In this document: one piece after another, positions 8,864 through 51,997 of the stretch
How positions within the stretch are numbered: position 1 is the stretch's first letter
Layout of the letters: every line of letters starts with the position of its first letter
Assembly (NCBI GenBank): GCA_000402355.1
Contig: AQRS01000042.1
Coordinates: 22,790-74,786 of the forward strand
Reading direction: 5' to 3'
DNA from: Candidatus Iainarchaeum andersonii SCGC AAA011-E11
GTDB taxonomy: Archaea; Iainarchaeota; Iainarchaeia; Iainarchaeales; Iainarchaeaceae
DNA: 51,997 nt
Translations under genes and position numbers: made by a program
The notes under the pieces: generated by a model
What the model was told of the DNA's origin: nothing
Databases searched by the model: none
The model's input: the letters and a program-made list of their open reading frames with translations, nothing else

Positions 8864-11800
8864 TCACGGCGCTTCGAATGCCTTTGCATTCCAGAACAAA
8901 TCAACCTTTCCGCCTTCGGCCTCGAAGCAAACCTTTGCCTCGGAATCGCTGTTGCCCTTGACGAGGCTCAAAAGGTTCTGGAGATTGTATGTGGTCTGGT
9001 ATCTGCCCGAAAGGTTGCTGTTCAAAGCCAATTTTCCCTGCGGCAAATCCTGTGTCCGCACCGAGTTCGGCGGCACGAGGTCGTATGTTTCCGTGAGCGA
9101 ACCGCGGTCCTTGGGCTGGCACGGCAGGTTGATGTAGGTGGTGTTGCCGCTGTAGAGTGCTGGCACGAAAACCAGTGCCGAGTACGTCGCGCTCTCGCCA
9201 TTCTTGGGTTCGTTGATTATGAATCCCGGGTACATTGTGCTCAGGTTCCTGCACAGGTCTCCTCCGTTGAACTCCTGCGCATACACTTTTTCGCTGCTGT
9301 TGCCGACCGCATCGTTCGCATTCCACGGAATGCTGCTGAGCTCGTTTATCCTGCCGTTGTTCGAGGAAACGAACTCATACAGGAAGCCCGCGGCCTCATC
9401 GGCTTTTGAATTCTTCGAGAACTTCACTTCAAGCTTTATGGGGTCCGAAGGCAAGTACTCGAATGCGGTCCTGCTGATTGAAGCTATCTTTCCGCCGAGC
9501 ACGTCGCTCTGCTTCCTCTTCACGCTGAACAAAACGCTTCCGCTTGAATTTCCTTTCGTCTTTGCGACTGGCAAAGCAGAAACGTCGCTGAGTTCCTGAT
9601 TTCCGTAATTGTTGAACACCAGTTCTTTTCCGTTTGCATTGGTGAAGCTCGTTCCGGAATCAACAGTGCCGTCAATGGGCAGTGAGAAGAGCGCGTTGTC
9701 CGCGTAATCCGAGTCGAATTTTTCCGCGCCATTCTTGTTGTCGGAATCAATCTGCTTCAAATCCCTGTTCTTCAGGAAAGATATTGCCGCCTTGTCGTCG
9801 CTCCACGTGTAGCTTATCGTTACATTGTAATCGCCTGCCTCTACGCTTCCCTCGGTGAATGAAAGCGTTGAAGGCATCATGGAGCCATAATCCGAAGAGC
9901 CCTTCATTGCGGTTGCGAACGAGTCATTGTAATTATCCTTCATGAGGAACACCGAGGGCTTTATGTTCTGCCTGTAGAACTGCAGGAAATTAGTGCTGCC
10001 GCTTCCTCCTTTATATCCGCTATTCCACGAGCCGCTCTCCATAACCAATTCCTTTACCGAGTCGCTCATTGCGGTGTTCTTTGCCGTAATCTTCCAGGTC
10101 CCCGCCGCGATTTTTTTGAGCAAATCCGTTGTAACTGTTTTTCCGTCTATGGTGCAGGTTGTGACTTTATTCCGGCAATTCGGATTCGAAAAAACTTTCG
10201 AGTTGAATTCCCTGTAAGCACTAAGCTGGACTGCATAAAGATTGTCTGAAATCTTTTCTGCGGGCAATACTGCGCTGTCGGCGTCGCTCCATGAATTGAG
10301 TTCAAGCACATAAGTCAGTCCCTTCAATTCAGGATTCTCGAGTGCGAATGCAATCTTGCCAATCAGGTTTTCAGTATTATTGACGATTGCCGTGTTCTGC
10401 TGCAAATCGGTGCTGCTTGCATTCATCTGGCTTATCGAGTCCGCGAGAATCTTAGAATCATTCAAAGGTGCCATTGCAATCGCCTTCAAAGTGAGGTAGA
10501 GCAAGTGAGCCTTGTCCGAAGCGCTCGTGAAGTAACCTTTGTTCTGGTCAAGCACAAACCTGAACAATTCAAGCGAATTCCTGTTTGCAGGTTCTGCACA
10601 ATTGAATTCGTTCGCAGTTGTAACACAGAGGCCATTTCCGCTATTTGCGCCTTTCACGATTGTTGTGATTGCCTCTACCCTGTCAATCTTCCTCGAGAAT
10701 TCAACCGTCGCCTGAACCGCGTCACAGAACAATGGTGCTGTATCCAAATTCAGTTTTCTCTGCGCTGTCGTATTCGTTGCTTCGTAAACATTGCATGCAT
10801 TCTCCGGAATCTTTTTGTCTTGATCTCCGGAAACGCGCCACTCGTAGCTGATGTGCTGCAAACCATATTTCCTGTAAACATCAGTTCCCGAATTTCCATT
10901 CTCGCACTCGAACGAAGATGTTTCCCCATCCTGCCCGGGTCCCGTGCCAGGTCCTGTTCCTGCGCCTTGCCTTCCCGCAACGCTAATCTGTATGTTGAAG
11001 CCGACAAGCTGCTTTCCTGGTGGCGAAATCCTGTTCACGTTGCCTATCATTTTCACGTTGAAGCTGGTTTTTTGACCGTTCCACGGTCCCGAGGTTTCAT
11101 CAAATCCGATGGACATTTCATGGCCGCCGTTATCGAGCTGCACATTCATTACCAACCCGGTTTTCGGATCCTTGAACGAGGTAGGCTCCAAATCAGAAAT
11201 GAAGTCAACTGTTCCGCATCCTCCGCTCTCATTGTTAGTTGTCGGGTTCTTGGTTGCGTACCTGAACAATCCACCGTTCTCGAGAGTGGAGTAAATCCTT
11301 CCAACGGGCAGTTCTCCGCCGGTTATTTTGGTGAAATTCAAGGATTCTTTCTTCAGGCACTGCTCCGGCGTGAATTTGGGGTCGCCGTATGTAGTGAACT
11401 GCTCCGAAATCCTTGCCCCTGCCTCGAGCAACGGCCACAAATCCTGCAGCACGAGCCTGAAGCTTGTGGTCTTCTGGCCGCCGTAAGGCGTCGTGAACCT
11501 GACGACAAGGTTGGTGCGCGACATGACCGAGTAATATGTCGTGGACAGGAAATACCTCAAATTTCCGATGTCCGCATACTTGTTTGCCTCGAAGAACTGC
11601 GCGGGCGGTGCCTTGTTCCTGTAAGTGCTCAGCGCCTTTGCGACCTCGAAAGTCAAAACCTGCTTTACCTTTCCGTTCGGCTGTGTCTCGAATTTCTCGT
11701 CAATGAGCCCCCAGCTTTCAATAAGTTCCTTCACTCCCGCTGATTCATCCGTGGGCGTGTTGATGCCGAGGCCGGCAAACGAAACCGCGTTGGTGCTCGA

Positions 11801-14800
11801 GTCAAGGTAAACGCCCTCGTTGTAACAAGAATTCATTACCTTGAGCTCAACTGGCTTTCCGAAGAAATTGTTGAAGTTAAGCGTCTGCGAAGGCGATAAT
11901 GATATGCAATCGCGGTAATTCTTTGTCGCCTCGTTCACGACATTCACGTAAATCTTTGCGATGTCCGTTGCCTTTTCGTTGCTCGTGCTCGGCTTCGCCT
12001 TCAGGTTCAGTTCATAGCGCCCGAAGAAATTCGTCGGCTCGACCGTAACGTCGCTCTGCTCATTCGGCTGTATGGTTATGGTCTTGTCCCTGACTATTAT
12101 TCCGGGCTGCGCGTCAAAGGAAACATCAACCGCGCTTTCACAGCTGTTGCTTATCTGGAAGGAGGTGCTCCCGCAGTTCCACGAACCGGAGTACGCGTTG
12201 TTCGAGTAATCATTGCCGTAGAACGGCTGTGCATAATTCTGGTTCGGGTAATAATTGTTCGCATAATTCGCGTAATTCTGGTACGAAGGCGCGAGCGAAG
12301 AACTATTGGACAAATCGCTTCCTATGTAAGGCGGCAGCCCCGTGCCGTAACCGTTCCTGTTGGAGTACGGGTCGAACTGCGTGTACCTGGAATTCTGGTA
12401 CTGCGAAAATTGCCCGCCGTAATTGTTGAATCCCATGTTGTTGGGGCAGCTGTTCACGGTCAAATCGCGGCTTGCAAGGACTTCGAGGCACTCGTTCAGG
12501 TTGTTCATGTTGATTGAAACCTTGATTGCCTTTGTGAGGTCTTCAGGGCCGTTCGCCGTGAGATTCGTTGCCCTTACCTCTATCTGCATGTCCGCCTTTC
12601 CGCTCACTATCTGTGCGGGCTGGAAATCAAGCGTAAGCGTCTGCTCCGCATTCACGGGGACGATTGCTGCAATGTTCCTGAATGTGTTCGTGAGCTCCGC
12701 GCTTGTCGAGCCGTCAAGCGTGCTTGATGCCCTGAATTTTCCCAATGCGTTGTCGTTGCCCGTGATAACACGTATTGAGAGGTTCCTCAAAGGAATTGCG
12801 CCGCCGGAAACCTTGCACGAATTCGTCATCGTGACATTGAGCTGCTTTGCCTGCGATGGCGCGCCGAAAATCTGCCACTCGCCAGGGAAGACGCCGAAGC
12901 AGTCAGTGTCATCCACATTGTCGCCGAAGCCGATTGTGAGTTCGAACGGGATTGATGAAACCCACTTCTGTTGGAACGCCGCGCTGGAAACAACAACGTT
13001 CAAAGAGCCGAGTATTTTGACCGGGGAGGCTATTGTCGCGCCCTGCGGCCCAAGCCTTAATGTTCCCGCAAGCTCCGCGTTTGAATCCGAATCAATGATT
13101 GTTCCTGCCGTAGGCGCGTCAAACGCGAACTGCGCGAATCCCTGGAAGTCCCTCGAGGCGGAAACTTCCTCGACCTGCAGCGGCACCTGCGAATAGTTCA
13201 ACAGCAATGCGTCTATGTTCTTGAATGCAGTGCCGCCGACGGCCATGGAAAGCTTTACTGTTTTCGGGTCCGAGGACAAAATATTTCCCGAAACCTTGAG
13301 TTCCTTTTCAATCGACTTGAAGCCGGGCTTCTCCGCCAAAATTCCTATTGTCGAGCCGTCGCCCGGAGAAAGCAAAGTGTACGCGAATACCCCTTCGATG
13401 TCCGTTTCTCCTGAAGCTATTACGGTTCCGTTGCTCTTGATGCTCACGGCCACGTTCGCAACCGCCGCATCGTTGTCGCCGGAAACCCTTGCAAGCACGT
13501 TGTTGTTTATGAGCGGCACAATGGATTTAGGGAGAACATCGAGGCTAAGCTGCTGCGCGGGCTGCACCTTGATGAGCAGGGATTTTTTGTAAACTTCGCT
13601 CGCGGTTCCGGTTCCCGAAAGAATTGAAACGTCGAGCTGCGCCGTGCCTTCCTTGCGCGGCTGGAAAATTATTTCCCCCTTCACAACCGAATCGCGCGCG
13701 ATGTCACCCACTTGCAGCGAAAGTTCCGAGCCTATTCCCTGTCCCTGCCTCTGCTGGCCGAGCGCGGTCGTGATGCTGTAGGATTGTATTGCGATGCTGC
13801 TGCTCCTGTCCTTAATGAGCAGTTGTGCCGCGCTGAACGGGGTTTCCGATGTGCCCGAAATTTCAAAGAACAGCCTGTAGGTTCCCTCGACCTGCGCCGA
13901 ATAGGAATCGCTTATGCCTGAAGTGATTTTTTCCTTGGTGTCCTCAATCGAGTAAGAGGAACAGAAATCTTCGCCGCACAAAGTCGAGGGGCCCACGCTG
14001 AAAGGCCTTTTGCGTGCGTTCGCGTAAAGCCCCTGTTTTTCTGGTATTGATTCCGCGGTTCCAAGTGCCGCGTCAGTGGGAACCCTCAGATAGCCCCCGC
14101 TTTTTCCCCATGCCCTGTACCACAGCTCGAGCTGCGAACCAATCCTCGTTTCGGCGCGAACCTGCAAATCAGCTTCAACCTCGTAAACTCCGCCGGAAAC
14201 ATTCCTGAAAACAATGTTTGCCCACTTCGCGTTTCCGGTTGTGTAATGCTGCGCATCATTCCCCTGCCCCGCGGGAGGCGTGTATGTCGTTCCCTCCGCA
14301 ATGCCCGAGAATGCGGCGCGCACATCGCTTATGTAAAGGTTGTCCTGTTCCATTGTGCTTGCATCATCATTGCCCGTGCGCACGTGAACCCCGGCCTCAT
14401 CAAACACCGCGCTTTTCGGGACAAGCAAAAGGAATTTTGCAGTGTACTTTTCCCCGGCATTGAGTCCGCTGCCCGAAGAAATTTTTTCGCCGTTGGAGTA
14501 AACCCCCTCAAGCCCGATTTCAAACGACTGGATTGCCTTCCTCAGCACGATTTTTTGCCCGAGAGTGACGTCCTTCTGCATCTGCACAGGCACGGTTGTT
14601 GCCTGGGCATAGCCATCGGCATTCACAACCAAGAAAATCTTTTTGTCCGCCCTTGCCGGGATTATTTTTTTGCCGTCCGAATCCGTTGTCTCCTCCGCAA
14701 TCACGGAGTTGGAGAATGAATCCACGACCTTTATTGTCGCGTTCACAATCGGCTTTCCGTCCTCGTCAAGTATGCCGGTCTCCAACCGTCCCGTGCCTAT

Positions 14801-16345
14801 GTTCAGCTGGCACGTGATTGCGTTGGCCTGCCTGCTGCTCAAAGTCACGGGGTCGCAGTATTTTTCCCCGACCCCCGGCTTCACGGCATAAACATAGTAA
14901 ACGCCGTCATCCACGCGCTGGAATATTCCGCGGCCGTCAAGGCCCGTGACAAGTTCCGCGCCCACCTGCGTTCCGTCCGCATTCTTTTTCAGTTTCAGCC
15001 TCACGTTCTCAACGGGCTTATTGTTCTCATCCACGATGCCGACAAGGAGGCTCTGGCTGTTTTCCGCGGTTGCCTGCTCAATCTCAATCTGCTGGAAATC
15101 AACGGAAGGCCTGAGTGAAGCCGTCTCAATAAGGTAGGCCGCCTTGTCAACGTAAATGTCGTACTCCACGTCTTCGCCGACCGAGAACTCAACCTTTCCG
15201 TCCGCGCCGGTTTGCGAAGCGGTTATTTCGGTCCGGCCTTTCGAGAGCTTTACGGTTGCGCCCCGAACCGCGTTTCCGTTTGCCTTGTCCTTCACAAGCA
15301 GCCTGATTTTGCCGACCACGCCCTGTGAAAGCACTACTGAAAATGTTGTAAGCGAATTCGCCTTTATTTCCTGCACAGCCTGGTTGCCAAGGCCGTCGTA
15401 TTCCGCGTAATTGTTGCCCCTGTCAAACGCAACTATGTAATATCTTCCAGAAGGCACGCCGGTAAACGAGGCGCTTCCTGTTGCGCTGGTCTGCTTGGTC
15501 TGGAATATTGTTCCCGCGGCATTGCTTTCCGAAACAGTGTAAAGGCTCACGTCAATTCCAGGAACAACGGTTCCTTGCGAATTTGTAACCGTGGCAACCG
15601 TGCTGCCTTTTCCGGCTTGGGTTTCCTCAACCGAGTAGCTCACAACGCCGCTGCCGGATGAGAGGAATGCAGAGTCATTTGAAATCGAGAAGTTTCCCGA
15701 AGGCCTCGCAATTAAAGCGTCACAATCTCCCGGCACGTCAATGTCAATGGTTCCTGTTGAAGTGCTTTTCCTCTGTGCAAACGAAGTGTTTCCGCTGCAT
15801 GAAAAATCCACGTCAATCTGCTTGCCGAAAAGCCTCGAGGTTCCCGCCTGCAAAAGGTTCACGGTTTTTTTCAGCGTGGTTATTTCCTGCTGCATTGTTA
15901 TTGTCGCGCTGCTCTGCGCTTTGGTTGCGGTGTAATTCTGGGCCTTGTCAACATAGCCGCCCTTTTCGGCTTTTATCTGGAATTCCATGTTAAGCGGAAC
16001 ATTAAAAGCCGCGTTTCCGTCCGCGTTCGTTGTCTGCGCGCCAAGCGTTTTTCCGCCCACGAGCACATCAACCGAGGCGCCCGGAATCGGCTGCTTCAAA
16101 GAATCCTGGACGGTAACCTGCAGCGATGCGGAGGAGAAAAATGCCGCGGAAATCCCCCAAACCACGAGCCCGAGGATAAGGGCGCATAAAAGCATGAAAA
16201 TTGGAAATGAGGGGATATTCCTGGCTTCAATCGCGTCGATTGCCTTGTAAACATGGACCCCTTTTTCCTCGACCCAATCCATGAGGGAATAGTATTTTTC
16301 CTCGAGTTGCGCGTAAAGGCCGTTTGCAGGGGCATCCGAAGCCAT
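8864..16345 (-). CDS. Giant surface protein 2 (2493 aa): paralog of giant 1 with the same head + TM + beta-sandwich repeats; contains an N/Y/S/Q-rich low-complexity loop
   Basis: Uninterrupted 7.5-kb ORF with an ATG at 16345. Head is LYAQLEEKYYSLMDWVEEKGVHVYKAIDAIEARNIPSFP, followed by TM IFMLLCALILGLVVWGISAAFF. Repeats include LQVTVQDSLKQPIPGASVDVL, IRLLVKDKANGNAVRGATVKL and LLVGIVDENNKPVENVRLKL. Core colinear with giant 1 (GEKYTAKFLLLVP..DEAGVHVRTG...WYRAWGKSGG; STLCGEDFC). The C-terminal motif LVK...LFWNAK is shared with giant 1. Confidence 0.85.
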   Translation of the reverse strand: MASDAPANGLYAQLEEKYYSLMDWVEEKGVHVYKAIDAIEARNIPSFPIFMLLCALILGLVVWGISAAFFSSASLQVTVQDSLKQPIPGASVDVLVGGKTLGAQTTNADGNAAFNVPLNMEFQIKAEKGGYVDKAQNYTATKAQSSATITMQQEITTLKKTVNLLQAGTSRLFGKQIDVDFSCSGNTSFAQRKSTSTGTIDIDVPGDCDALIARPSGNFSISNDSAFLSSGSGVVSYSVEETQAGKGSTVATVTNSQGTVVPGIDVSLYTVSESNAAGTIFQTKQTSATGSASFTGVPSGRYYIVAFDRGNNYAEYDGLGNQAVQEIKANSLTTFSVVLSQGVVGKIRLLVKDKANGNAVRGATVKLSKGRTEITASQTGADGKVEFSVGEDVEYDIYVDKAAYLIETASLRPSVDFQQIEIEQATAENSQSLLVGIVDENNKPVENVRLKLKKNADGTQVGAELVTGLDGRGIFQRVDDGVYYVYAVKPGVGEKYCDPVTLSSRQANAITCQLNIGTGRLETGILDEDGKPIVNATIKVVDSFSNSVIAEETTDSDGKKIIPARADKKIFLVVNADGYAQATTVPVQMQKDVTLGQKIVLRKAIQSFEIGLEGVYSNGEKISSGSGLNAGEKYTAKFLLLVPKSAVFDEAGVHVRTGNDDASTMEQDNLYISDVRAAFSGIAEGTTYTPPAGQGNDAQHYTTGNAKWANIVFRNVSGGVYEVEADLQVRAETRIGSQLELWYRAWGKSGGYLRVPTDAALGTAESIPEKQGLYANARKRPFSVGPSTLCGEDFCSSYSIEDTKEKITSGISDSYSAQVEGTYRLFFEISGTSETPFSAAQLLIKDRSSSIAIQSYSITTALGQQRQGQGIGSELSLQVGDIARDSVVKGEIIFQPRKEGTAQLDVSILSGTGTASEVYKKSLLIKVQPAQQLSLDVLPKSIVPLINNNVLARVSGDNDAAVANVAVSIKSNGTVIASGETDIEGVFAYTLLSPGDGSTIGILAEKPGFKSIEKELKVSGNILSSDPKTVKLSMAVGGTAFKNIDALLLNYSQVPLQVEEVSASRDFQGFAQFAFDAPTAGTIIDSDSNAELAGTLRLGPQGATIASPVKILGSLNVVVSSAAFQQKWVSSIPFELTIGFGDNVDDTDCFGVFPGEWQIFGAPSQAKQLNVTMTNSCKVSGGAIPLRNLSIRVITGNDNALGKFRASSTLDGSTSAELTNTFRNIAAIVPVNAEQTLTLDFQPAQIVSGKADMQIEVRATNLTANGPEDLTKAIKVSINMNNLNECLEVLASRDLTVNSCPNNMGFNNYGGQFSQYQNSRYTQFDPYSNRNGYGTGLPPYIGSDLSNSSSLAPSYQNYANYANNYYPNQNYAQPFYGNDYSNNAYSGSWNCGSTSFQISNSCESAVDVSFDAQPGIIVRDKTITIQPNEQSDVTVEPTNFFGRYELNLKAKPSTSNEKATDIAKIYVNVVNEATKNYRDCISLSPSQTLNFNNFFGKPVELKVMNSCYNEGVYLDSSTNAVSFAGLGINTPTDESAGVKELIESWGLIDEKFETQPNGKVKQVLTFEVAKALSTYRNKAPPAQFFEANKYADIGNLRYFLSTTYYSVMSRTNLVVRFTTPYGGQKTTSFRLVLQDLWPLLEAGARISEQFTTYGDPKFTPEQCLKKESLNFTKITGGELPVGRIYSTLENGGLFRYATKNPTTNNESGGCGTVDFISDLEPTSFKDPKTGLVMNVQLDNGGHEMSIGFDETSGPWNGQKTSFNVKMIGNVNRISPPGKQLVGFNIQISVAGRQGAGTGPGTGPGQDGETSSFECENGNSGTDVYRKYGLQHISYEWRVSGDQDKKIPENACNVYEATNTTAQRKLNLDTAPLFCDAVQATVEFSRKIDRVEAITTIVKGANSGNGLCVTTANEFNCAEPANRNSLELFRFVLDQNKGYFTSASDKAHLLYLTLKAIAMAPLNDSKILADSISQMNASSTDLQQNTAIVNNTENLIGKIAFALENPELKGLTYVLELNSWSDADSAVLPAEKISDNLYAVQLSAYREFNSKVFSNPNCRNKVTTCTIDGKTVTTDLLKKIAAGTWKITAKNTAMSDSVKELVMESGSWNSGYKGGSGSTNFLQFYRQNIKPSVFLMKDNYNDSFATAMKGSSDYGSMMPSTLSFTEGSVEAGDYNVTISYTWSDDKAAISFLKNRDLKQIDSDNKNGAEKFDSDYADNALFSLPIDGTVDSGTSFTNANGKELVFNNYGNQELSDVSALPVAKTKGNSSGSVLFSVKRKQSDVLGGKIASISRTAFEYLPSDPIKLEVKFSKNSKADEAAGFLYEFVSSNNGRINELSSIPWNANDAVGNSSEKVYAQEFNGGDLCRNLSTMYPGFIINEPKNGESATYSALVFVPALYSGNTTYINLPCQPKDRGSLTETYDLVPPNSVRTQDLPQGKLALNSNLSGRYQTTYNLQNLLSLVKGNSDSEAKVCFEAEGGKVDLFWNAKAFEAP

Positions 16346-16411
16346 TGAATCACTTAGTAATTAAATGGGATTAACTAATTTTAATTGCACCGTTCCATTT
16401 AAAGGTATCGT

Positions 16412-16527
16412 AAACACCTTTTTTCTTTCTTTGTCAAGAAAGAAAAAAGCTGTGCCAAAAAAGAAAGAAAACTAACTGCTGTGCCAAAAAGAAAGGTGTA
16501 AAGGAAAATCTTGCCAAAAGAAAGAGC
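16412..16527 (-). promoter_or_regulatory. Conserved upstream module of giant gene 2: imperfect ~13-bp hairpin/palindrome (16418-16449) plus three copies of a GCYKTRCCAAAAAGAAAG box
   Basis: Plus strand reads CACCTTTTTTCTTTCTTTGTCAAGAAAGAAAAAAGCTGTGCCAAAAAAGAAAGAAAACTAACTGCTGTGCCAAAAAGAAAGGTGTAAAGG...CTTGCCAAAAGAAAGAGC. A near-identical module occurs at 27513-27572, at the same distance from the ATG of giant 3 (73 vs 78 nt). Confidence 0.45.
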
Positions 16528-16615
16528 GCCCTTACAAGTGTATGGCAAAAAAACAAATGCCGGGTTTTTTATTTTCGTGGGGGGGGTTTCCGCAGGCCTA
16601 ACATTAAAGGTTGTA

Positions 16616-16708
16616 ATATCAAAAGACATTAATTCAGCAACTTTTATTAGTGTCTTTTGATAGCTATCAAAGGACATTATTTGTTTCATTATTTATGCCC
16701 TTTGATAT
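16616..16708 (+). promoter_or_regulatory. Operator-like array: 4 half-sites TGTCYTTTGATA, including the perfect 16-bp palindrome TTTGATAGCTATCAAA (16656-16671), upstream of or overlapping the start of the GGDEF-family gene
   Basis: Half-sites are ATATCAAAAGACA (16616-16628), TGTCTTTTGATA|GC|TATCAAAGGACA (16651-16676) and GCCCTTTGATAT (16697-16708). The 60-nt unit 16616-16676 recurs twice, in the same orientation relative to the downstream gene, at 46755-46813 and 46847-46906. Confidence 0.5.
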
Positions 16709-17753
16709 TAAATATTCCAGCGCCGAATACTATTCGGAGCTGCTGTTTTTGCCGGAAAAAAGACGAACCAAGCTTGATGAAATCAAAACCACGCCCGTGA
16801 AGATGCGGGGTGCCAAAGAGCCGAAAAACCTGCTGATTGCGACGCGCGTCGCGAGAAGGCTCAGGATTGTAGGAAAGGCAATGCTTGCCAAAGAAACAAG
16901 GGAACTTAATTACATGATCAGGCTCAGGGGCCAACGTGAAAGGGCTCTTAAGGCGCAGTTTGCGGACCACAGATTAACCCATGAAGAAATGGAGGCGCAA
17001 CTCAAGCCTCTTGCTGAAAAAATAAAAGCCAAAGCCAAGCGCCTCGAATCAATAAATGAAAAGCGTGCGCGCCTGCTCGGCCCAAGGCGTGACAGGATAA
17101 ACATTAGCGCGCTGAACGACCCTTTCTTCGATTACATTTACGGCCACGAGGCTTTTTCACTGAAGACAAAGGAAATGTTTTCCGCCAGCAAATCAAAGCC
17201 CATCCAGACCGTTGCCATGGTTGACATGGACAAACTCAAGGAATCAAACACCCTTTTCGGCCACGTCAGGGGCGGCGCAGTCCTTCTCGACTGTTATGCG
17301 AAAGCCGCAAAATCAATCTGCGAAAAATACGGCGGCTTCGCGGCCCGCTACGGCTCCGACGAATTCACTTTCCACTTTCCTTTGCCCGCGGAAAAAGTGC
17401 AGGAAATAATGCTCGAGTACCAGGGCATCGCAAGGGAAAACCTCATGAAAAGCCCCTTGGCTTACGCCGTTAAACAACGCAAAATTCCGGGCACCGCAAC
17501 AGGCGCAATAATCCAGGTTGATTTCGGTTTTCAGCGGGAGCACAAGCAAAACCCCGAACAAATTTACAAGAATGTCATGGAGCAGGTGAGCAGAAAACTC
17601 ATTGCCCTGAAAACACAGGGCCGAAGAGGGCGTCTTCTCGAAAAAGGCTTTTCGGGATTTATCCGTGGCTACAATCGTGTCTTCGGCGGGAAAAGCGGAA
17701 GAGGGCAGATAGCGACGCTGGAAGAAAACGAGCTTCCGAAAAGCATTAAGTGA
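16695..17753 (+). CDS. GGDEF-family nucleotide cyclase-like protein (GSDEF variant) with a basic coiled-coil N-terminus
   Basis: Motifs read by eye are DPFFDYIYGHEAF; VAMVDMDKLKESNTLFGHVRGGAVL; and FAARYGSDEFTFHFP (GSDEF = nt 17352-17366). These match the GGDEF palm-domain pattern DxLTGLxNR / DxDxFKxxND..GH..GD / RxGGDEF. The start is uncertain. The track ORF begins at 16650 with a non-ATG codon inside the palindrome. ATG 16695 sits in the context TTATTTATG. ATG 16803 (MRGAKEP) is an alternative. Confidence 0.7.
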   Translation: MPFDIKYSSAEYYSELLFLPEKRRTKLDEIKTTPVKMRGAKEPKNLLIATRVARRLRIVGKAMLAKETRELNYMIRLRGQRERALKAQFADHRLTHEEMEAQLKPLAEKIKAKAKRLESINEKRARLLGPRRDRINISALNDPFFDYIYGHEAFSLKTKEMFSASKSKPIQTVAMVDMDKLKESNTLFGHVRGGAVLLDCYAKAAKSICEKYGGFAARYGSDEFTFHFPLPAEKVQEIMLEYQGIARENLMKSPLAYAVKQRKIPGTATGAIIQVDFGFQREHKQNPEQIYKNVMEQVSRKLIALKTQGRRGRLLEKGFSGFIRGYNRVFGGKSGRGQIATLEENELPKSIK

Positions 17754-17760
17754 CCCTAAC

Positions 17761-17768
17761 TTTTTTTT
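17761..17768 (+). terminator. T8 tract between convergent genes; candidate archaeal oligo-T terminator for the GGDEF-family gene
   Basis: TGA at 17751-17753 is followed by CCCTAAC TTTTTTTT. Position 17768 is also the first base of the TCA that encodes the stop of the convergent minus-strand gene. Confidence 0.3.
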
Positions 17769-18868
17769 CAGTCGTACACATACACGAGCCTCATTCCGTA
17801 AACGTTCGGCTGGAGCTTGCTCACCATGTACTTGTCGTCGGTGTCCTCGAAGTAAAGGATCACTTCGTAGCTCCCGAGCTTTTCGCAGTCATTGCCGCAC
17901 GGGGCTGTTGAAACAAGCACGGTGAATGGCTTCTGCCTGTACAGCCCGAATTTGCCCGAGTCGTTATAGGCAAGCCCTTTATCGCTTATGATTGCCCGGA
18001 CAGCGGCCGAAACCTGCGCCTCGACCTGTGCCTTGCTTTTCGAGGAATCAAAAACGCCTTTCATCTGGCCCGCAAACTCCGGGCTGTATATTCCGCCGCA
18101 GTCGTTGCATGCAACCGCCTTTGCCCCCGCAATCGCCTTGAACAGCCTCACGGGAACATAAATCCTGAATTTTCCCCTCGGCAAAATAGGCTCCTTCAGG
18201 GTTCTCCCCGTGAAGCTGTTGGTAACCACGACCTGCGGAAACGACTCGTAATCCTTCTCGCTCATTGCCTCATTGCTCAAGTCTATCGTGACATAAAAGC
18301 TGCCGATGCAATTGCCGTAATCCCCATCTTCACAGCCGACAAGGTCGAAGAAATCTTTTTTTTCTGATTGTTTGTTGAAGTTCTCGCCGAGGTTGCGCGC
18401 CATCTCCGCCTCGTCCGGATTGTCGAGCTCAATCTCAAAGCCGTGCACATCATCCGTGCCCTGAAGGAGCGAAATCAGGTGGCGCGCCGCAAGGGTCGCG
18501 AACTGGTCCTTTGTGCCCTTGTCCGGGCTGACTCCGAACCTGTCCTTCACGAAATCCGCCTGCAGCCCGTTCCAGTTGCCGGAAATTTCGGGGCGCATGT
18601 AGTAAGTGTTGTCAGGCAAGTCATCCTGCGGATTCGTGTCCTTGGTTGAAAAATCCTCGATTGTGTACCTTATGCCGAAGTTGAACACCTGCAGGGAGTC
18701 GGCGCGCGACAAATCCGCTATCGCCTGCATTTCCTGCTGGTCCGAAATGTCGCTTATGATGCCGGAGGTGCTTCTCTCTTTTGAAATCATTGACTGCACC
18801 AGCAGCATGGAAAGCACAATCAAAATGAATGCGACGAGCGCCGTGAAAAGAGTGAAGCCTTTCTCCAT
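17768..18868 (-). CDS. Large pilin-like protein (366 aa) with a short type-IV-pilin-style leader MEKG|FTLFTALVAFILIV
   Basis: ATG at 18868; the track start at 18874 is GTG. A short charged leader ends in G and is followed by F and a ~20-aa hydrophobic helix, the class III (type IV pilin) signal architecture. The rest is a soluble 340-aa domain. It lies 36 nt downstream of the stop of giant 3, on the same strand. Confidence 0.6.
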   Translation of the reverse strand: MEKGFTLFTALVAFILIVLSMLLVQSMISKERSTSGIISDISDQQEMQAIADLSRADSLQVFNFGIRYTIEDFSTKDTNPQDDLPDNTYYMRPEISGNWNGLQADFVKDRFGVSPDKGTKDQFATLAARHLISLLQGTDDVHGFEIELDNPDEAEMARNLGENFNKQSEKKDFFDLVGCEDGDYGNCIGSFYVTIDLSNEAMSEKDYESFPQVVVTNSFTGRTLKEPILPRGKFRIYVPVRLFKAIAGAKAVACNDCGGIYSPEFAGQMKGVFDSSKSKAQVEAQVSAAVRAIISDKGLAYNDSGKFGLYRQKPFTVLVSTAPCGNDCEKLGSYEVILYFEDTDDKYMVSKLQPNVYGMRLVYVYD

Positions 18869-18904
18869 GAGCACTAATTAGCAATTAAGGAATATAATAA
18901 GGTT

Positions 18905-21900
18905 TCAGGATGCCTTCCACGCGTACGAATTCCATGCGCTGTAAATCTGCTCGAACTGGGTTCCCGTAACATTAATTGCGTTGGCTTCCTGGTTGTCCTT
19001 GTCCGCATTGTACTCGGCGAGGTAGCACGGCACATCGCCATTGCATTCTCCCGCATAGGAGTAAAGCTTATCCGAAGCGCACAAAGCGTTCGGGTAAACG
19101 TCTCCCGCTGTCTTGTCGCTGTGCAGGCTGCATCCGAACATGAATATTGCGGAGCCCTTAGCGTCCGGAGCGGTTGCCGTGCCTGTGTAGGTTCCAAGTT
19201 CGCTCTTCACAATGCCGATGCTGACTGTAAGCGCCTCGAGATTGAGGTTGTTCGTGAGTGCCGCGAACCTGGTTTTCTTGTTTGAGGAAGAATCAAGGGA
19301 TGCAGGTTGGCCTTTCTGGTCCTTCACTGCCTGCGCAATGATGGCTCCGTACCTTTCGCCATTTGATTGTTCCGCCAAATAATTCTTCGCGATTTTCACG
19401 TGCTGTGTCTGCAGTTCTTTTGATGCCTTGAACGGCTCGGGGAATTTCTGCGAGTCCTCAACTTCAGGAATCAGGCCGGGCAAAACCTCGCCAAGCTCCT
19501 TGTCTATTCCGGAATTCTTGCAGTCGTTCAATACTGTGTCGGGCTTTGTTCCCTGCGGAATGCCGTTGGCCGCCTGCGAGAACATGAGAGACTGCACGCC
19601 GTCCGCCCTGGTTTTCAGCGAAACCAAATAGGTGTTGTACCTCACTATTTCCTTTGCCGCATTTCCCGTTGTTTCGATTTCCTGCCCGAACAAGCCCACC
19701 TGCGCTTTTTTGAGTTCATCTTCCCTCGAAATCGTTTTCACCGCATTTATTCCGGTGCTGTCCTCCTTGTTGAACACCGAATTGTAGGCTATGAGGCCGA
19801 TGCTGTTTGCAACCGCGCCTAAGGCGCCTTCCTTCAAAGCATTTTTCGCGAACGCCAGGCCTCCCTTCCAGCTCCAGAATTTCGGGCGCGCATCCTCAAC
19901 GGCCTGTGCAGCGTTCACTGTCAGGCTCTTCACGCCGGTTGAAGCGAACTTATTCTGCAGTGCCGTGTCATAGGTAGTTGCTAAGGGGCTCCTGATTCTT
20001 TCTAGGACATCTTCCTTGAATATGCTCTCCGCCTGCTGCACCATTTCCTTGACCTGGTCATTCCCTATTTTGATTTTTGTTTCAAGCGGAGCCTTGACCT
20101 GGACAGCCTGTCTCGCTCCCGGAGGAGCCGCAACATCTTCGAAGTATTCGGCAGTCGTGCCTGATCTCCAGTCGAGCTTGAGACCGTCTATTTTGGCTTC
20201 GAGGTTGGGCGGAAGTGCAGCAACGCCGAGCTCATTCTTTATCCTTGTCTTTATGCTGTTCTTCAAGTTGTTTTCCAGGCCGAGTACATTTGTGTTGAAT
20301 TGCGGATATGTTGCAGGGTTCCTGGCCACATCATCTAGGTCTACAAAGGTTCCAGCTCGAGTTGTCGGCAGTATGACTGTCGTGGAGCCCGTCACTCTGG
20401 TTTGCAGCTTCATGTCCTCCACGATTTTCTCCGCTGTCGCTTCGCTGAGCTTGGCTGTCTTGAGGCTGTCAACCGAAACCCCGTTCCTCACGTTATAGAA
20501 TTGCCTCCAGACCGTTTCATCCTTGTCCACGCGGAGCTTCGCGGCCTCGACAGCCTTCGTGATGTCATCAGTCGTTATGTTCGTGGTCCGTCCGGCGCCT
20601 TTGATGCTTATTGTAGTTTTTGATTTTGCCGCCGATTGCAGTTCCGCCCGGACTTCCTTGTACATTGCGTCATCATAAACTCCCTGGAATGCCTTGATGT
20701 TGTCGAGCATTTTCTTGTCAGTAACTCCTGCGAACGCGTTTTTCGTAATATCCTCCGCAATCGTGTCCGCAATGTTCTTTGAAACAATGTCAATCTGCCC
20801 TATCCATGGTATGTCCGGCCCGCCGATTGCGGTGCTGGAGAAAGTCCTCGATGCTCCGAGTATTACCGCCTTGAGCCTTATCGGGTCGGCGAATGCCGCG
20901 CTGATGCTCTGTACGGCGTCGGTTTTCGGGTCAAAGCCTTTCAGCTGCTCCGCGATGCTTTTCTCGTTCCCGATGCCCATCAGCCTCAAAGGGTACGAAA
21001 TTATTCTCCCTGCAAATGTGCTGTCGAGGAACTCGTTCACCTTCTTGAATATTCCGTCAGCGAAATTGAATATGTCCTTCATGAACGGGACAGTTTCCCC
21101 CATGAGAGCCGTGAAAGGAATTCCGCAATCGAATAGCACATTCAGCAGTGCCCCCGCCGGGCCTATTGTGGGCCGCAGCAAAGAAGTGCCAATGCTCGCT
21201 ACGCCGCATGCCCCGAGATAAGCGTATGACGCCTTTCTCTTTTTTTGCACCAGTTCAGGCGGGTCGCCCTGCGTCACGTTCTGCTTTCCATCGATGATGC
21301 TGTCGCTGGTTTTTGCGACCTCTTCGGCCCTCGCGAGTTTAGGAAGGTCACTCAAAAGTATTTTGTCGGGGTTCCCTTTCCACACAACCGTTGCATAATA
21401 CTCGCCGTTCGGCTTGCCCTTGATTTTCTCGAGCAGGTCCAAAGGATGAACGCCGCACACATTAAGTTCCACCTCGGTTTCAATCGGCTTCTTGCCTTCT
21501 CCTGCAGTCCTTTGCGCGGTAACAACAATCTTTTTGCCCTGTGCCTGCTGAAGCTGCTCATTTCCCGTGACGCAAACCATGGCCCCTCCAGTGTACGAAT
21601 TCGTTTTCTTGTCTTGCTTGTCAATCTGCAGCTGCGTAATCTTCGCGCCCGGATTGGGTGCCGCGCCCAGCACGGGAGCCGCGGCAAAGTACGGGCTGTC
21701 AGCGCTGATTCCGTCGAACTGCGAGAACTTGCGCGCGGAAAGCGAAACGCCGTCAGTGAACTTGCTCGTCACGTTCACGTCGACGCACTGGGGCACATTG
21801 AAAAGCACGTTCAGCGGTCCAGTCACTTTTAAGACAGGCAATTCAAAGCTGCTCGTGCTCTTCAAAAGCAGGTAGCTTTCGTCCTGGCTTATGCAGCCTT

Positions 21901-24900
21901 CAACCACGTTATCGCGCAAATCCTTGATTGCCTGGCCGGCCTCTTTCGCAATGTCCTTCTGCAGCTGGTCGTCGCTTCCAATGCTTTCCTTGATGTAAGC
22001 GTTTATTGTAACTGGGTTCTCGGAAATAACCTTGTCCATTTCAACGCGGACAATATAGCCCTCTTCGTTCCCGAAATCAAGCTTCAAGGTGTTCGAGCCC
22101 GAAACGTTCTGCGTCGCCCTTTGGTCCGAACCGAACAATGTTTTTGCAACGTCCTTTGCGAGGCCGTCAAGCTTTTCATCGCGCGCCTGCACGACCCCGA
22201 GCCACGAGTTATATTTCTCCGATGTCGTGAGGCCCTCATCCCGCGGCAGGAAATTTGAGATGTTCTGTATGCGCGCGAGGCACTGCTCCGTTTCCTCGCG
22301 AACGCTTCCCCCGTCGCTTGAATCAGGCGTAATGTCAACGACCATGTTCATGAGCTCTGGCACGAGCCTCGCGCCCTGCACCGCAACAGAGCCATTGAGC
22401 GTTATCGTATATCTTCCGCATCCCCTGAAGTTGCTGTTCAGGAAAACCTGCCTGCTGTAGCCCCCGAGGTACTCGCCACCCGTGTCCCCGCTGATGAAAT
22501 CAGCCCTGAAGTCCCTGATTACGCCGGTTTTCTTGTCAATGGCTTTCTGCAAAAGCGCCGTGCTTAAATTGTCCTGGCCCATGTAAACGGAGAAAGTTTC
22601 CTTCCTCACGCCGAGGCCGTCGAAAGAGCAGTAGCCGCGCGCGAGCTCCTGCTGCGAACAATACGCATTCTGGATTTCGGAACTCTTGCTCTGAATCTGC
22701 TTCTGCGCGTCGGTAATTTTTGAATCAATCCTGTCCACCAAATAAGCCGCGAGTTGCTGCGCGTCGCAGTAACTCGAGTCGCAGAGCGGCGAGTTTCCTG
22801 CCGCGATTATCGGGAACCTGACATCCATTGTTCCGCCTCCACACACATTCAATGTGACGCGCTCCGTTGCCGCGGTCCCTTCCTTGACATATTTTCCGAG
22901 CTTCACATCCACAATGATTGGAGTGGATTCTATTGCGGTTCCGCTGTTCGGCAAAAACGCCTTTATGTAAACAGGGACAGCCGGCCCCTGGAAATCCTCC
23001 TTCTTCTCAAGTATGAGTTCGGCCTTTGCTTCCGCGCCCGGCGCAATTATCATGTCCGCGGGGCTTATCGAGAGCCTGTTGTTTCCCAATGGCGCCTGCG
23101 AGATTTCACGTACCCTTACAGGCTCCGCGCAGGTGTTGCGCAGGCTTATGCTTTGCGAGATCGCGCCTTCATCGCTCTTCGTGCTGATGTAACTCACGTT
23201 TCCCGGGACCGCGATGAGGCAGCCCTCCGCGGAAATGTGCGAAGTCACAATGATTGGCCCGAAGTTGAATGTCGTGCCATTGATTACTCCCGTAACGTCA
23301 AGCTCCTTCGTGTCCACAAGAGTGGTCTTCTCGTTGCGCAGGGCCTGTGCAATAATTGTTTTTGGCGGGAGAATCGCCTGCCCTTTTTTCAGGAACTGTA
23401 TCGCGAACGGCGGGTCAATCCTTATGTCCACGTTTCCGCGGGAGGTCGCGCTCGAAACCTTTATGTCGACATTTTCTATGTCCGCTTCCCCGACGTTCCT
23501 TATGAAGAGGGGCACCTGCGCCGCGTATTGCCCGCGGTCGTTCGGGCCCAAAAACAATTCGATATTGTTTGTCATCTGGAGCGCGTAGCGCGGGTTCCAG
23601 ATGTAAACATCCAAAGAAACGGTCTTTTCGAAATCGCTTCCCTTGTAAACGAGGTCAAAGCTGAACTTCTGCTTTCCGGGATAGTTCCTGAGGAGCTTGT
23701 TCGTAATGCTTATTGTAACCTCGTCGGTGTCGGTCCGGTTTCCCTGTGTTTCCGAGAGCTGCGGCGAGACCTTTATCTGCTCGGGGTCAACCTCAATGCC
23801 GTCGGTTTTCTGGCCGCGAGGAACAACCTGCGCCGTCAGCTCCAGATCAAGCTGGCACTCCGCCCTGTTCGCGAGCTTTGCAGTGAAAGTTTCTGTCGTT
23901 GATGCCGAGAAATTGTTGTACTTGTAGTAACTCGTCGGTTCGGTCGAATTAAGGGTTCCATACCTGTTGTCATAGTAGGGGCGGTCCTCGAAACCCGAGG
24001 CAACATAAACCGCGAGCTTGTCCTTGCTGAACTCAAGGCAGTCAGAACTTATCTTCGGGTTGTAATCAATTACCGCACGCGTTTCCGCGACAACACTGAA
24101 GCCGCTCTCTGTTTTTGCGCGCGCAATAATCCTTGCGGCTCCATGCGCGCTGTCATTTTCGCCCGTGTATTTTGCGCTTACCGAAATCCTCTGCGTCTGG
24201 CCCGCCTGCAAACCCGAAAGGGGCGAAATTTCAATTGCCAGTCCGTCAGGCAATGCGCCTATGGGTTCGGCCGTAAAAGTGATGCTGTTCAGGTTCTGCT
24301 TGGAGTTGTTCACGAGGTCAATGAACTTGTCAACATTCTTCTCGCCCTTCCTTATGATTAGGGACACCTGCGCATCCGCAAAGGAGAGCATTCCTGTTTT
24401 GGTTATGCTTATGGTTCCGTCGAGCGCCCTGAATTCCGGCGCGGTGATTTCGTATCTTATTGTGCCGGAACCGAATGTGTTCTTGATTGCGTACATTCCG
24501 TTCGCGCCTTTTCCGACGGCTCCGTTGCCGCCGATTGTTTCAAGGTCATCGCCCGCCTCGTTCTGAATCCTTATCTGCGCATTTTCCACGGGCAGTGAAT
24601 CATCGCCAGTGAGGCCTATTGAAAAGTCCTCGCCGAAAACAACGTTTTCAGGGGTTGTGCGGAGCACCATTGTGCGCTCCCTGAAAATCTCGAAGTAGAA
24701 CTGCTCGTTGATTATGGTTTCGCCTGAAATGAGCTGCAGGGTTATTCCGGAGTTCTCCTTTTCCTTGGTCTTGAAGTAGAGCCTCACGGATGTGGATTCT
24801 TTCGGCAAAACGGAAACGTGGTCAACCTGAATCGAGGTGTCGGAGCTGTTCGTGTCCGGGAAATCGGAGAAATTCTCTATGCCATAGCCCTGGAACGCGA

Positions 24901-29008: not shown

Positions 29009-29215
29009 GCAACCGGCCTTTTACGCTAATAAGTATCATGTTCACGAATAAAAAATAGCCGTTTCCGAAAAAACGCAAAGCCCAATTTTTCCAGGCCGTG
29101 CGCGCTAATATAAAAGTATAATAATAAGAATCCCCATCTATTTCTCAAACAACCCAACCCCCTACGAGGGTTCCGTTGACGGTGTCGTTGAACCAGGCTA
29201 TTGGTGATTTGCGCA

Positions 29216-33855: not shown

Positions 33856-34307
33856 ATTCCAATGCGCAGGCCTTCGAGGTCTACAGGCTCCTCATAGGCG
33901 CGATAATAGCGCTCCTCATTCTCGTGATAATCGTTGGCGCAATAAATTATTTCGACAACCTGACAATTGACGTGAGCAGGCAGAGGTTTTTCAGCGGGCT
34001 CTCGAATGCGGTTGACCAGCCGAACGGCGAATCACTCATGATTGAGGGCGTGGTTTTCCGGCGCGGCGAAGCCTTCACTTCGCGCGCACTCGCTCTGCAG
34101 ATGGGCATCGGCGAGGACTGCGTTGAATTTGCGGGCAATGATTCCTCGGGAATTTCCCTGGGAGACGGCATAGTCACTGTAAAGGAAAAGCTGAAGACCG
34201 ACGTTTTCGTGAAGTGCGAAACAAACAGCCAGGAAAGCCCCGCAATCGCGGTTCCAAGCGGCTGCGAAATTGCCTGCGAAATAGGCTTCGGCGAACCGAT
34301 AGGCTGA
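33852..34307 (+). CDS. Pilin-like protein with class III signal (MNSNA|QAFEVYRLLIGAIIALLILVIIVGA)
   Basis: ATGA overlap with the platform gene. A short leader, Q at +1 and a ~22-aa hydrophobic helix are followed by a small soluble domain. Confidence 0.65.
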   Translation: MNSNAQAFEVYRLLIGAIIALLILVIIVGAINYFDNLTIDVSRQRFFSGLSNAVDQPNGESLMIEGVVFRRGEAFTSRALALQMGIGEDCVEFAGNDSSGISLGDGIVTVKEKLKTDVFVKCETNSQESPAIAVPSGCEIACEIGFGEPIG

Positions 34308-34367
34308 GGCAAAAAAACAAGACAGTGGAATTGCCTCACGCAGTGTTTGAGGCAGGAAAGACAATAG

Positions 34368-34652
34368 AATTGCACGCTGCAGCTCCTGCAACTCTTTCAA
34401 TGACATCCTTGGTCCTAAGTCGCCGGCATTCAATTCAAACAATTGCCAGCAGTTTTCCTTTGCAGTGATTTCAGCCAACAGGGTTTTTCCCAAGCCAGTG
34501 TTTCCAAAAAACAACAATGGCTTTTGCTTTACTCCATTCTTCCAGCCATCACTCCACTTTTTTACGGCAGCAACTGCTGAAGGATTTCCCACAATCTCGG
34601 AAAATTTTTGCGGAGCAAACTTTTCAGTCCAAAGCATTGCTTTTTCAGGCAT
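34368..34652 (-). pseudogene. N-terminal fragment (~95 aa) of a replication factor C large-subunit-like AAA+ protein
   Basis: MPEKAMLWTEKFAPQKFSEIVGNPSAVAAVKKWSDGWKNGVKQKPLLFFGNTGLGKTLLAEITAKENCWQLFELNAGD matches the RFC-L N-terminus pattern (LW.EKY.P....E.VG... W...W...... LLL.GPPG.GKT.LA......G.....ELNASD). The Walker A is degraded (GNTGLGKT). Similarity stops after about 95 aa. The remaining ORF (to 34032) is low-quality and overlaps the pilin CDS. Confidence 0.45.
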
Positions 34653-46732: not shown

Positions 46733-46906
46733 TTATATCGAAGGACATAAATAATGTCCTTTGATAGCTATTGAAAGACACTAAAAAGTTGCTAAATTAA
46801 TGTCTTTTGATATTATATCAAAGGGCAAAAATATGGATGCAAAATTTGTCCTTTGATAGCTATCAAAAGACACTATAAAAGTTGCTAAATTAATGTCTTT
46901 TGATAT
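46733..46906 (-). promoter_or_regulatory. Operator-like array: 8 half-sites TGTCYTTTGATA in alternating orientation, including two tandem copies of the ~60-nt unit also found at 16616-16676
   Basis: Half-sites lie at 46735-47, 46755-66, 46767-80, 46801-12, 46815-27, 46847-58, 46861-72 and 46894-905. Unit copies are 46755-46813 and 46847-46906. The reverse complement of copy 2 is ATATCAAAAGACATTAATTTAGCAACTTTTATAGTGTCTTTTGATAGCTATCAAAGGACA, almost identical to 16616-16676. Confidence 0.5.
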
Positions 46907-49602: not shown

Positions 49603-49604
49603 TT

Positions 49605-51834: not shown

Positions 51835-51997
51835 CACAAACACATTCTTCGTCAATCAACGAATAATGGGTGTTACTTTTTTTAAGCGTTTGCGAGCGTG
51901 AAATCCCATTGCTTTAGCTGTGGGATGAGAGCGAGCATCTATTTTTTTCCTGAAAAATCGTTATATGCCTCGAGGCGCGGGCGCTCCGCGCCAGGAG

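Follow-up and report, generated by a model that had tools for sequence, protein, structure and literature searches.

Do archaea use messengers made by GGDEF-family proteins, and can the GGDEF scaffold be re-tuned to a new product, as in the Hypr enzymes? These questions are raised by a gene at positions 16695–17753 (plus strand) of a 51,997-nucleotide stretch of contig AQRS01000042.1 (assembly GCA_000402355.1, positions 22,790 to 74,786) from Candidatus Iainarchaeum andersonii SCGC AAA011-E11; the whole of this stretch is called the window below. According to reviews, diguanylate cyclases are almost exclusively bacterial (PMC10249747). Tests of Haloferax and Sulfolobus did not reveal cyclic di-GMP (c-di-GMP; PMC8646023). 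Among complete archaeal genomes, a GGDEF domain has been reported only from Methanocella arvoryzae, and hits from metagenome-assembled genomes (MAGs) have been doubted (PMC5847659). More than 300 BLAST hits for archaeal GGDEF proteins, mostly in Asgard and DPANN MAGs, have been mentioned without analysis (PMC8646023), and confirmation on archaeal contigs has been called for in a review (PMC10086821). In our literature search, GGDEF proteins of archaea, DPANN, or Diapherotrites appeared in passing mentions only, and no study of a Diapherotrites GGDEF family was found. The window gene is a real, selected, and divergent GGDEF-family gene of a DPANN archaeon, and it matters chiefly because it opens the way to a GGDEF family that is specific to Diapherotrites and has canonical-looking cyclases among its members.

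The initial annotation had recognized a GGDEF palm domain in this gene by eye. The gene is present in the list of open reading frames (ORFs) and encodes 352 amino acids (aa) from the ATG at 16695, from which residues are numbered throughout; the three peptide stretches quoted from it (DPFFDYIYGHEAF, VAMVDMDKLKESNTLFGHVRGGAVL, and FAARYGSDEFTFHF) were all found in its translation. Pfam PF00990 (GGDEF) matched residues 154–310 (E = 4.7e-9; 36.7 bits, where the curated cut-off is 23.8), and the match spans profile positions 15–159 of 161. When PDB sequences were searched using phmmer, the top matches were all diguanylate cyclases (WspR, E = 2e-5), and the best value improved to 2e-7 with a profile of the five closest homologs. 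A first AlphaFold2 model from five sequences was poor (predicted local distance difference test [pLDDT] 62) and was replaced by a monomer model from 23 family sequences with a pLDDT of 83.6 and a predicted template modeling score of 0.71, in which pLDDT is above 90 across most of the helices and the palm domain. This model superposes on diguanylate cyclase structures. Foldseek matches in the PDB included SiaD, DgcR, DgcB, WspR, DgcZ, and PleD, with template modeling scores against diguanylate cyclases of ca. 0.7–0.78 when normalized on isolated GGDEF domains. Each of the best 50 matches has a GGDEF domain, and almost all are diguanylate cyclases; the stalk-plus-GGDEF protein SiaD (7e6g) ranked first. 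Since the sequence and fold searches agree, the by-eye assignment is confirmed: the window protein belongs to the GGDEF domain family, and its C-terminal 170 residues have the GGDEF palm fold in the model (aa 141–312, nt 17115–17630). In NCBIfam, TIGR00254 and several diguanylate cyclase equivalogs gave weak matches, all far under their cut-offs, and the SiaD model NF038266, whose cut-off is 290 bits, scored 36.1 and aligned to nothing but the GGDEF domain. Purifying selection acts on the gene; the ratio of nonsynonymous to synonymous substitution rates (dN/dS) against its 89%-identical homolog was 0.34 for the whole gene and 0.24 in the GGDEF domain.

Motif correspondences were taken from a HMMER pairwise alignment to WspR and from a domain hidden Markov model (HMM) alignment of 246 GGDEF proteins. 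The catalytic metal-binding residues were found in these alignments, with D177, D222, and E223 aligning to their WspR equivalents. VDMD (aa 176–179, nt 17220–17231) matches the metal-binding xDxD strand, and D177, which aligns to the first metal-binding Asp of diguanylate cyclases, is invariant together with D179 in 23 of 23 family sequences. D222 and E223 lie in the signature hairpin RYGSDEF (aa 218–224, nt 17346–17366; canonical RxGG(D/E)EF), where position 222 is Asp or Glu and position 223 always Glu in the same 23 sequences; R218 is kept in the five closest sequences and is K or H in more distant members. Near the domain end, KTQGRRG (aa 306–312, nt 17610–17630) aligned to the phosphate-binding KxxGRN of canonical cyclases, and its basic residues (K306 and R310/R311) are retained. 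D177, D179, N185, G194, G214, and E223 are invariant across the 23 sequences (20–50% identity). Invariant residues in the five closest sequences comprise D177, D179, N185, H190, R192, G193, G194, R218, Y219, G220, D222, E223, F224, K306, R311, and G312.

All three departures from the canonical domain that the initial annotation had listed held up in the alignments. The signature reads GSDEF (aa 220–224, nt 17352–17366) and not GG(D/E)EF, its second Gly being replaced by Ser; only the small residues Ser, Ala, and Thr occupy this position in the subfamily. GHVRGG (aa 189–194, nt 17259–17276) stands in place of GHxxGD, in a GHVRGGA loop (aa 189–195, nt 17259–17279) that carries a one-residue insertion in the domain-HMM alignment. 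The RxxD inhibitory site (I-site) of feedback-inhibited diguanylate cyclases is absent from the window protein; its place is taken by KYGG (aa 211–214, nt 17325–17336), which aligns to RSSD of WspR. Among the sequences listed in the alignment, all short archaeal-type members likewise lack RxxD and have Gly at its last position, and several bacterial multidomain GGDEF matches do carry it. Guanine is recognized by an Asn and an Asp, which we take to be N335 and D344 in PleD numbering. The Asn is kept as N185, which aligns to the base/ribose-edge Asn of canonical cyclases; the Asp is absent, replaced by G194 in the pairwise WspR alignment or by A195 in the domain-HMM alignment. The window protein was not classed as a diguanylate cyclase because both GG(D/E)EF and the guanine-reading Asp are missing. 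Of the 21 listed family sequences with the loop insertion, none has Asp at the aligned position, and the signature centre is D throughout and E in none, whereas GGDEF sequences with the guanine-reading Asp have E in 148 cases and D in 51.

The N-terminus had been described as a basic coiled coil without a transmembrane segment. It is indeed basic over ca. 140 residues (34 K+R versus 15 D+E in aa 19–140), with two long helices predicted and no hydrophobic segment. Residues 19–45 (nt 16749–16829; K+R 9/27) form a basic segment of low model confidence, with pLDDT below the rest of the model, and Lys/Arg/Pro-rich N-termini are seen across the family. They are followed by two helices of ca. 45 residues (aa 46–90 and 96–140, nt 16830–17114; pLDDT about 90–96), predicted by AlphaFold2 as a helical hairpin or stalk in a SiaD/DgcB-like layout and conserved in the 23-sequence alignment; on this monomer model they are presumed to be the dimerization element. 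The C-terminal tail (aa 313–352, nt 17631–17750) is of low model confidence and contains a Gly/Arg-rich insertion of ca. 25 aa that the window protein shares with its 89% relative alone. The same order of N-terminal long helices and a C-terminal GGDEF domain occurs in Pseudomonas aeruginosa SiaD, Caulobacter DgcB (6ttr), and the GCN4-WspR fusion (3i5c), which also share the metal-binding Asp, the D/E-E of the signature, the Asn, the Arg before the signature, and the basic KxxGR. However, the window protein is only 16–21% identical to them and differs in GSDEF, in the GHVRGGA loop with its insertion and without Asp, in the lack of RxxD, and in its archaeal host. No SiaC-like partner of the window protein was identified.

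To what does such a protein belong? A word-indexed search of 5.8 billion proteins returned only four relatives, with 89, 52, 41, and 37% identity, all of them on contigs with archaeal gene content or named "archaeon", and when one genome per GTDB species was scanned, the four loci found all carried "archaeon" in their titles. Among 1.84 billion cluster representatives searched exhaustively with a profile, 9 matched at E < 1e-30 and 36 at E < 1e-10; a further word-indexed search, run with the family profile, retrieved few of the distant members known from this exhaustive search. Beneath the core family lies a tier of ca. 220–360-aa proteins of the same architecture, that is, a Lys/Arg/Pro-rich N-terminus, long helices, a D(P)xF linker, and a GGDEF domain. 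Group A, to which the window gene belongs (P0001–P0005, P0126, P0127, and P0130), has the loop [GSN]H[VIL]RGG (SQERGG in P0130), the signature [RK]YG[S/A/T]DEF, and the C-terminal motif KxxG.RG; the base-reading position is Thr or Ser in P0004, P0126, and P0005. Group A′ (P0128 and P0131) has GYRGGG and HYGGDE[F/Y], group B (P0134, P0137, P0138, and P0147) has GRxxGG and HIGGDEF, and group C (P0146 and P0148) has the signature HVYGDEF; bulky F, H, or L occupies the base position in the sister groups. Group D (P0135, P0139, P0140, P0144, and others) is canonical, with GHxxGD, R[YWH]GGEE[F/L/I/M], and, in most members, KxxGRN (P0172 differs). Canonical Diapherotrites members such as P0135, P0139, P0140, P0144, P0166, and P0179 resemble the window protein in size, basic N-terminus, helices, D(P)xF linker, and GGDEF domain, in ending the I-site position with Gly where Asp would be expected, and in lying on archaeal contigs. 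In contrast to it, they keep GHxxGD, R(Y/W/H)GGEE(F/L/I), and KxxGRN and therefore look like ordinary diguanylate cyclases.

A neighbor-joining (NJ) tree was calculated from the GGDEF domain alone (178 match columns, 105 sequences, 60 bootstrap replicates); it is rough, and its comparison set was picked by similarity. Bootstrap values were 87% for A with A′ and 97% for B with C, and deeper nodes were weak, the union of all derived groups having 40% support. The point estimate joins the derived groups in an 18-member clade whose sister is formed by the canonical short proteins. The query falls in a 31-member clade, made up of the derived groups, the canonical short proteins, P0152, and P0142/P0164, that contains this architecture only, and the members of the architecture checked by name or gene context were all Diapherotrites or unclassified archaeon. 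Judged from the alignments, the N-terminal architecture and the I-site replacement are independent synapomorphies of the family, and the family is confined to Diapherotrites as far as sampled. On the same comparison, the derived branch lost the guanine-reading Asp, gained one loop residue, and changed GG to G[S/A/T]. Our reading is that the family is old and lineage-specific, that its ancestor probably resembled a normal diguanylate cyclase, and that the window gene sits on a derived branch. The suggestion of a horizontally acquired regulator, taken as a recent acquisition, is not supported in view of the exclusively archaeal nearest relatives, the lineage-specific architecture, and the position of the query in an architecture-only clade.

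The contig itself is archaeal (Diapherotrites, DPANN), and contamination or chimerism is excluded for practical purposes. It is not chimeric because the same gene with the same flanks occurs in an independent archaeal MAG (GCA_038046625.1), where orthologs of the window's 2,493-aa giant gene and 368-aa pilin-like gene flank the 89%-identical gene; the gene of this relative is also found on short contigs from two other read sets. The archaeal context claimed in the initial annotation is likewise upheld by the gene content of the window: a PAC2 proteasome-assembly chaperone whose named homologs are from Candidatus Diapherotrites and archaeon GW2011_AR10, FlaI/TadA-type ATPases, T2SSF-like membrane proteins of archaeal pili, and the N-terminal part of an RFC large subunit. 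The PAC2 homolog P0026 is 70% identical to that of the window and shares the locus-tag prefix COV47 with the family member P0373. Other family members adjoin archaea-specific genes: canonical P0135 lies next to NMD3, an RMMBL/beta-CASP nuclease gene (aCPSF-like), and FtsZ; canonical P0140 lies next to GatD; the contig of P0274 (group A) carries a GatE-like gene (GatB_N-GAD-GatB_Yqey) and an HVO_0163-type helix-turn-helix gene; and that of P0004 encodes deoxyhypusine synthase. P0166, P0179, P0137, and P0373 bear the name Candidatus Diapherotrites archaeon, and P0141 and P0002 are listed simply as archaeon. That the gene is bacterial DNA, brought in by recent horizontal transfer or present because of contamination or a chimeric contig, is highly improbable. 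Such an origin would fit the overwhelmingly bacterial distribution of GGDEF and the GC content of 0.48 in the 16–18 kb bin versus ca. 0.53 in adjacent bins, but it is opposed by the flanks shared with the independent MAG and the two further read-set assemblies, by the archaeal origin of the four closest relatives in 5.8 billion proteins, by the archaea-specific neighbors and Candidatus Diapherotrites names of family members, and by a distinct N-terminal architecture whose NJ clade includes the query. Recent transfer and a chimeric contig were rejected on the independent synteny and the archaeal nearest relatives. PhageMetallopep-family (PF18894) and HhH-GPD glycosylase genes recur within a few kb of group A and B members on different Diapherotrites contigs (L004, L011, L012, and L016). 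This recurrence suggests vertical descent and a conserved ancestral locus from which the window copy seems to have been displaced.

As the best explanation of these features, we propose that the window protein is a soluble, stand-alone GGDEF-family nucleotidyl cyclase; that it cyclizes nucleotides as a dimer, with a purine specificity that is altered or relaxed, is a reading we hold tentatively, at slightly less than even confidence. Dimerization would come from the two N-terminal long helices, on the pattern of SiaD, DgcB, or WspR, and would bring two palm domains loaded with nucleoside triphosphate (NTP) face to face to form a 3′,5′-linked dinucleotide. A strict GTP-only cyclase is unlikely because the guanine-specific Asp is gone, the loop has an extra residue, and the signature is GSDEF. 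Purine NTPs would probably be accepted loosely, giving cyclic GMP-AMP (cGAMP), cyclic di-AMP, or a linear dinucleotide, possibly with some c-di-GMP. Since there is no RxxD site, product feedback inhibition would be lacking, and regulation may act at transcription, via the palindromic motif cluster upstream of the gene, or through a partner on the helical stalk or the basic N-terminus. The retention of the metal- and phosphate-binding residues, the restriction of the signature substitution to small residues, and the dN/dS of 0.24 count in favor of an active cyclase, and the altered product specificity raised in the initial annotation is plausible on the residue pattern.

The closest parallel for such a change is found in Hypr GGDEF enzymes (Geobacter GacA and Bdellovibrio Bd0367), which make 3′,3′-cGAMP. 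As in these, the guanine-reading Asp is replaced, by Thr or Ser in the relatives P0004, P0126, and P0005, and the signature centre of the loop-insertion sequences is always Asp. According to the Hypr "Goldilocks" rule, Ser/Thr as the base-reading residue is seen exclusively alongside GGDE[F/Y], the shorter metal-holding Asp being the sole partner that suits a shorter base-reading residue (PMC6456294). In the present family, the way in which loop and signature co-vary is suggestive of a parallel to this rule. However, the window protein does not show the Ser/Thr plus GGDE[F/Y] combination: it has Ala or Gly in place of Ser/Thr, an extra loop residue, and a changed second signature Gly. It also lacks a REC domain and belongs to a clade unrelated to Hypr, and no cGAMP riboswitch was found in the window using Rfam.

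A number of points weigh against the proposal of an active cyclase with altered specificity. Enzyme activity is deduced from sequence and dimerization from a monomer model, and WspR is not known to tolerate more than slight change of its signature. The co-variation comes from one or two clades, so that it is suggestive and not statistical and does not count as independent evidence. The Ala or Gly at the base-reading position, where Hypr enzymes have Ser/Thr, leaves no obvious base-reading side chain, the sister groups have bulky residues there, and the 52-kb window and 11 related loci yielded neither a phosphodiesterase nor a receptor domain nor a riboswitch. The GGDEF-EAL protein SesB, which has the identical GSDEF string and is the one GSDEF domain reported as tested in the papers found, was without detectable cyclase activity, as cited in PMC13571940. 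In a rival explanation, the window protein is a degenerate, inactive GGDEF protein that binds NTP or a partner and acts as a sensor or scaffold via its helical stalk without making a messenger; we regard this as a serious rival, though less likely than not. It would suit the change of GG to GS within the catalytic hairpin, the loss of the guanine-reading Asp with the loop insertion, the drift of sister groups to HIGGDEF and HVYGDEF with F, H, or L at the base position, the lack of turnover or receptor genes seen nearby, and, besides SesB, the example of PdeA, whose GEDEF domain only binds GTP (cited in PMC13571940). On the other hand, the metal- and phosphate-binding residues are strictly kept, under selection and over deep divergence, and the substituted signature position takes small residues only. 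SesB and PdeA share with the window protein a non-canonical second signature residue; however, known GTP-sensing degenerate GGDEF domains such as these are fused to the EAL phosphodiesterase they regulate, and the window protein has no second enzymatic or output domain to control. Without an I-site, it cannot be a cyclic dinucleotide receptor of the PopA/PelD type.

An ordinary diguanylate cyclase whose c-di-GMP controls the neighboring pilus and giant-adhesin genes, as in bacteria, is quite unlikely. Pfam and NCBI-style annotation point to it, the gene sits between giant surface-protein and pilin-like genes in a window with FlaI-type ATPases, and canonical-motif relatives exist in the same lineage. 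Nevertheless, the guanine-reading Asp is absent and the signature non-canonical, the pilus/adhesin neighborhood is common to the 89% relative only, and the 37–52% homologs and sister groups lie among housekeeping genes. In addition, no PilZ or MshEN motif, EAL or HD-GYP domain, or c-di-GMP riboswitch was found in the window, and c-di-GMP has never been detected in an archaeon (PMC10249747; PMC8646023). Returning to the cyclase with altered specificity, a wider and rather doubtful proposal is that Diapherotrites have their own vertically inherited cyclic-dinucleotide system built on the coiled-coil GGDEF family, in which canonical members would make c-di-GMP and the derived branch, with its remodeled base pocket and GSDEF, another messenger; the window gene may then regulate pilus and adhesin genes for attachment.

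DPANN archaea live attached to hosts, and an attachment-linked messenger, if true, would bear on their biology. For one lineage, Diapherotrites, the confirmation of GGDEF proteins on archaeal contigs asked for in the literature is now given. The family spans canonical-motif cyclases to a derived branch with a remodeled nucleotide pocket, beside archaea-specific genes, and provides testable candidates for signaling so far undetected in archaea.

The initial annotation had placed the gene next to the adhesins and pili that it might control. It is flanked by giant genes on the minus strand and the pilin-like gene, an arrangement common to the 89% relative only, and the neighbors of other members are housekeeping genes (deoxyhypusine synthase, geranylgeranyl-reductase-like, HhH-GPD, Dus, GatD, and NMD3). 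Since the linkage is limited to the window and this one relative, gene order does not support pilus/adhesin control, and a functional link via conserved gene order was rejected. No EAL, HD-GYP, or PilZ domain was found in Pfam scans of 26 further window ORFs, the three giant ORFs being left out, and a six-frame motif scan of the window gave neither MshEN nor PilZ. The Rfam scan covered c-di-GMP and cGAMP riboswitches as well as other RNAs, and none of the families scored up to its gathering threshold in the window; no tRNA genes were found there. The Pfam annotation of the 11 related loci likewise contained no EAL, HD-GYP, PilZ, MshEN, or riboswitch. Membership of a defense system was also rejected, as PADLOC gave no match for the protein and Pfam no Cas10 palm match.

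As to the extent of the gene, the claimed ORF is real, but its start at ATG 16695 is probably wrong; the ORF list also opens a longer version at GTG 16650. TTG 16749, which would give a 334-aa product, is the likely true start because the gene call of the 89% homolog (P0002) starts at MPEKRR, the counterpart of this TTG, and only the closest relative conserves the 18 residues before it. More distant homologs begin at the equivalent point in the family alignment.

Upstream of the gene lies a cluster of four copies of a 12-bp motif, TGTCYTTTGATA (16617–16707), which includes a perfect 16-bp palindrome, TTTGATAGCTATCAAA, at 16656–16671 that occurs again at 46852. The motif is present 11 times in the window versus 0.41 expected, often in inverted pairs, and is limited to two intergenic clusters; the seven other copies (46736–46905) are upstream of an uncharacterized 249-aa ORF at 45974–46723 (minus strand). 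Two further copies were found on another Diapherotrites contig (L016, 2057–2098), and the cluster is absent from the homologous site of the 89% relative (L001). There, the repeat-rich ca. 300 bp of the window (16410–16707) corresponds to ca. 830 bp (L001, 9128–9959) with two small overlapping ORFs of 84 and 96 aa that are toxin-antitoxin-like in look. The motif may be an operator for a regulator or a small mobile repeat element, and the cluster hints at a transcriptional control of the GGDEF gene that is not conserved. An A/T-rich ATATTAAATATT at 16706–16717 has a spacing that would fit an archaeal TATA box and a leaderless mRNA. A bacterial-type promoter/terminator scan gave no excess over shuffled expectation, its models being unsuited to an archaeon. 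Between the start of the giant gene and the palindrome cluster, a TGCCAAAA(A)GAAAG-like unit recurs about three times in direct orientation, as judged by eye, at ca. 16452–16530.

The three giant ORFs are all on the minus strand (861–8291, 8864–16345, and 18905–27439; 2,476, 2,493, and 2,844 aa). Those of 2,493 and 2,844 aa share an N-terminal module (…Y/F-Y-x-x-M-D-x-L-x-x-K-G-V-P-V-Y…I-P-x-F-P) followed by a hydrophobic helix. The ortholog of the 2,493-aa giant gave faint Ig-like and CarboxypepD_reg repeat matches; because of these weak matches, the giant ORFs are likely surface adhesins. The pilin-like gene at 17768–18874 (minus strand), which is beside the GGDEF gene in the 89% relative too, encodes a 368-aa protein with an archaeal type IV pilin-like N-terminus (MLMEKGFTLFTALVAFILIVL) and a class-III-type signal peptide, and no Pfam match to it was obtained. 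FlaI/TadA-type secretion ATPases are encoded at 29201–31492 (plus strand), with an unmatched N-terminal extension of ca. 220–300 aa, and at 50374–51855 (minus strand), and are accompanied by T2SSF-like membrane proteins (31435–33855, 48715–49608, and 49605–50420); this gene content indicates at least two archaeal pilus-type assembly systems in the 52 kb. No record identical to the terminal FlaI-like ATPase, from which the contig might have been followed past the window, turned up in an exact-protein look-up. In the 206-aa ORF at 34032–34652 (minus strand), only the first ca. 80 residues, to the P-loop region, match the archaeal RFC large subunit; the remainder is unmatched and the region overlaps opposite-strand ORFs, so this may be a truncated or split RFC gene. 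Just beyond it, 34698–35240 (plus strand) encodes a small nucleotidyltransferase (NTP_transf_2/Pol-beta type) that matched the PADLOC candidate families PDC-S09 and PDC-M05A and may be an MNT-like toxin-antitoxin or defense component.

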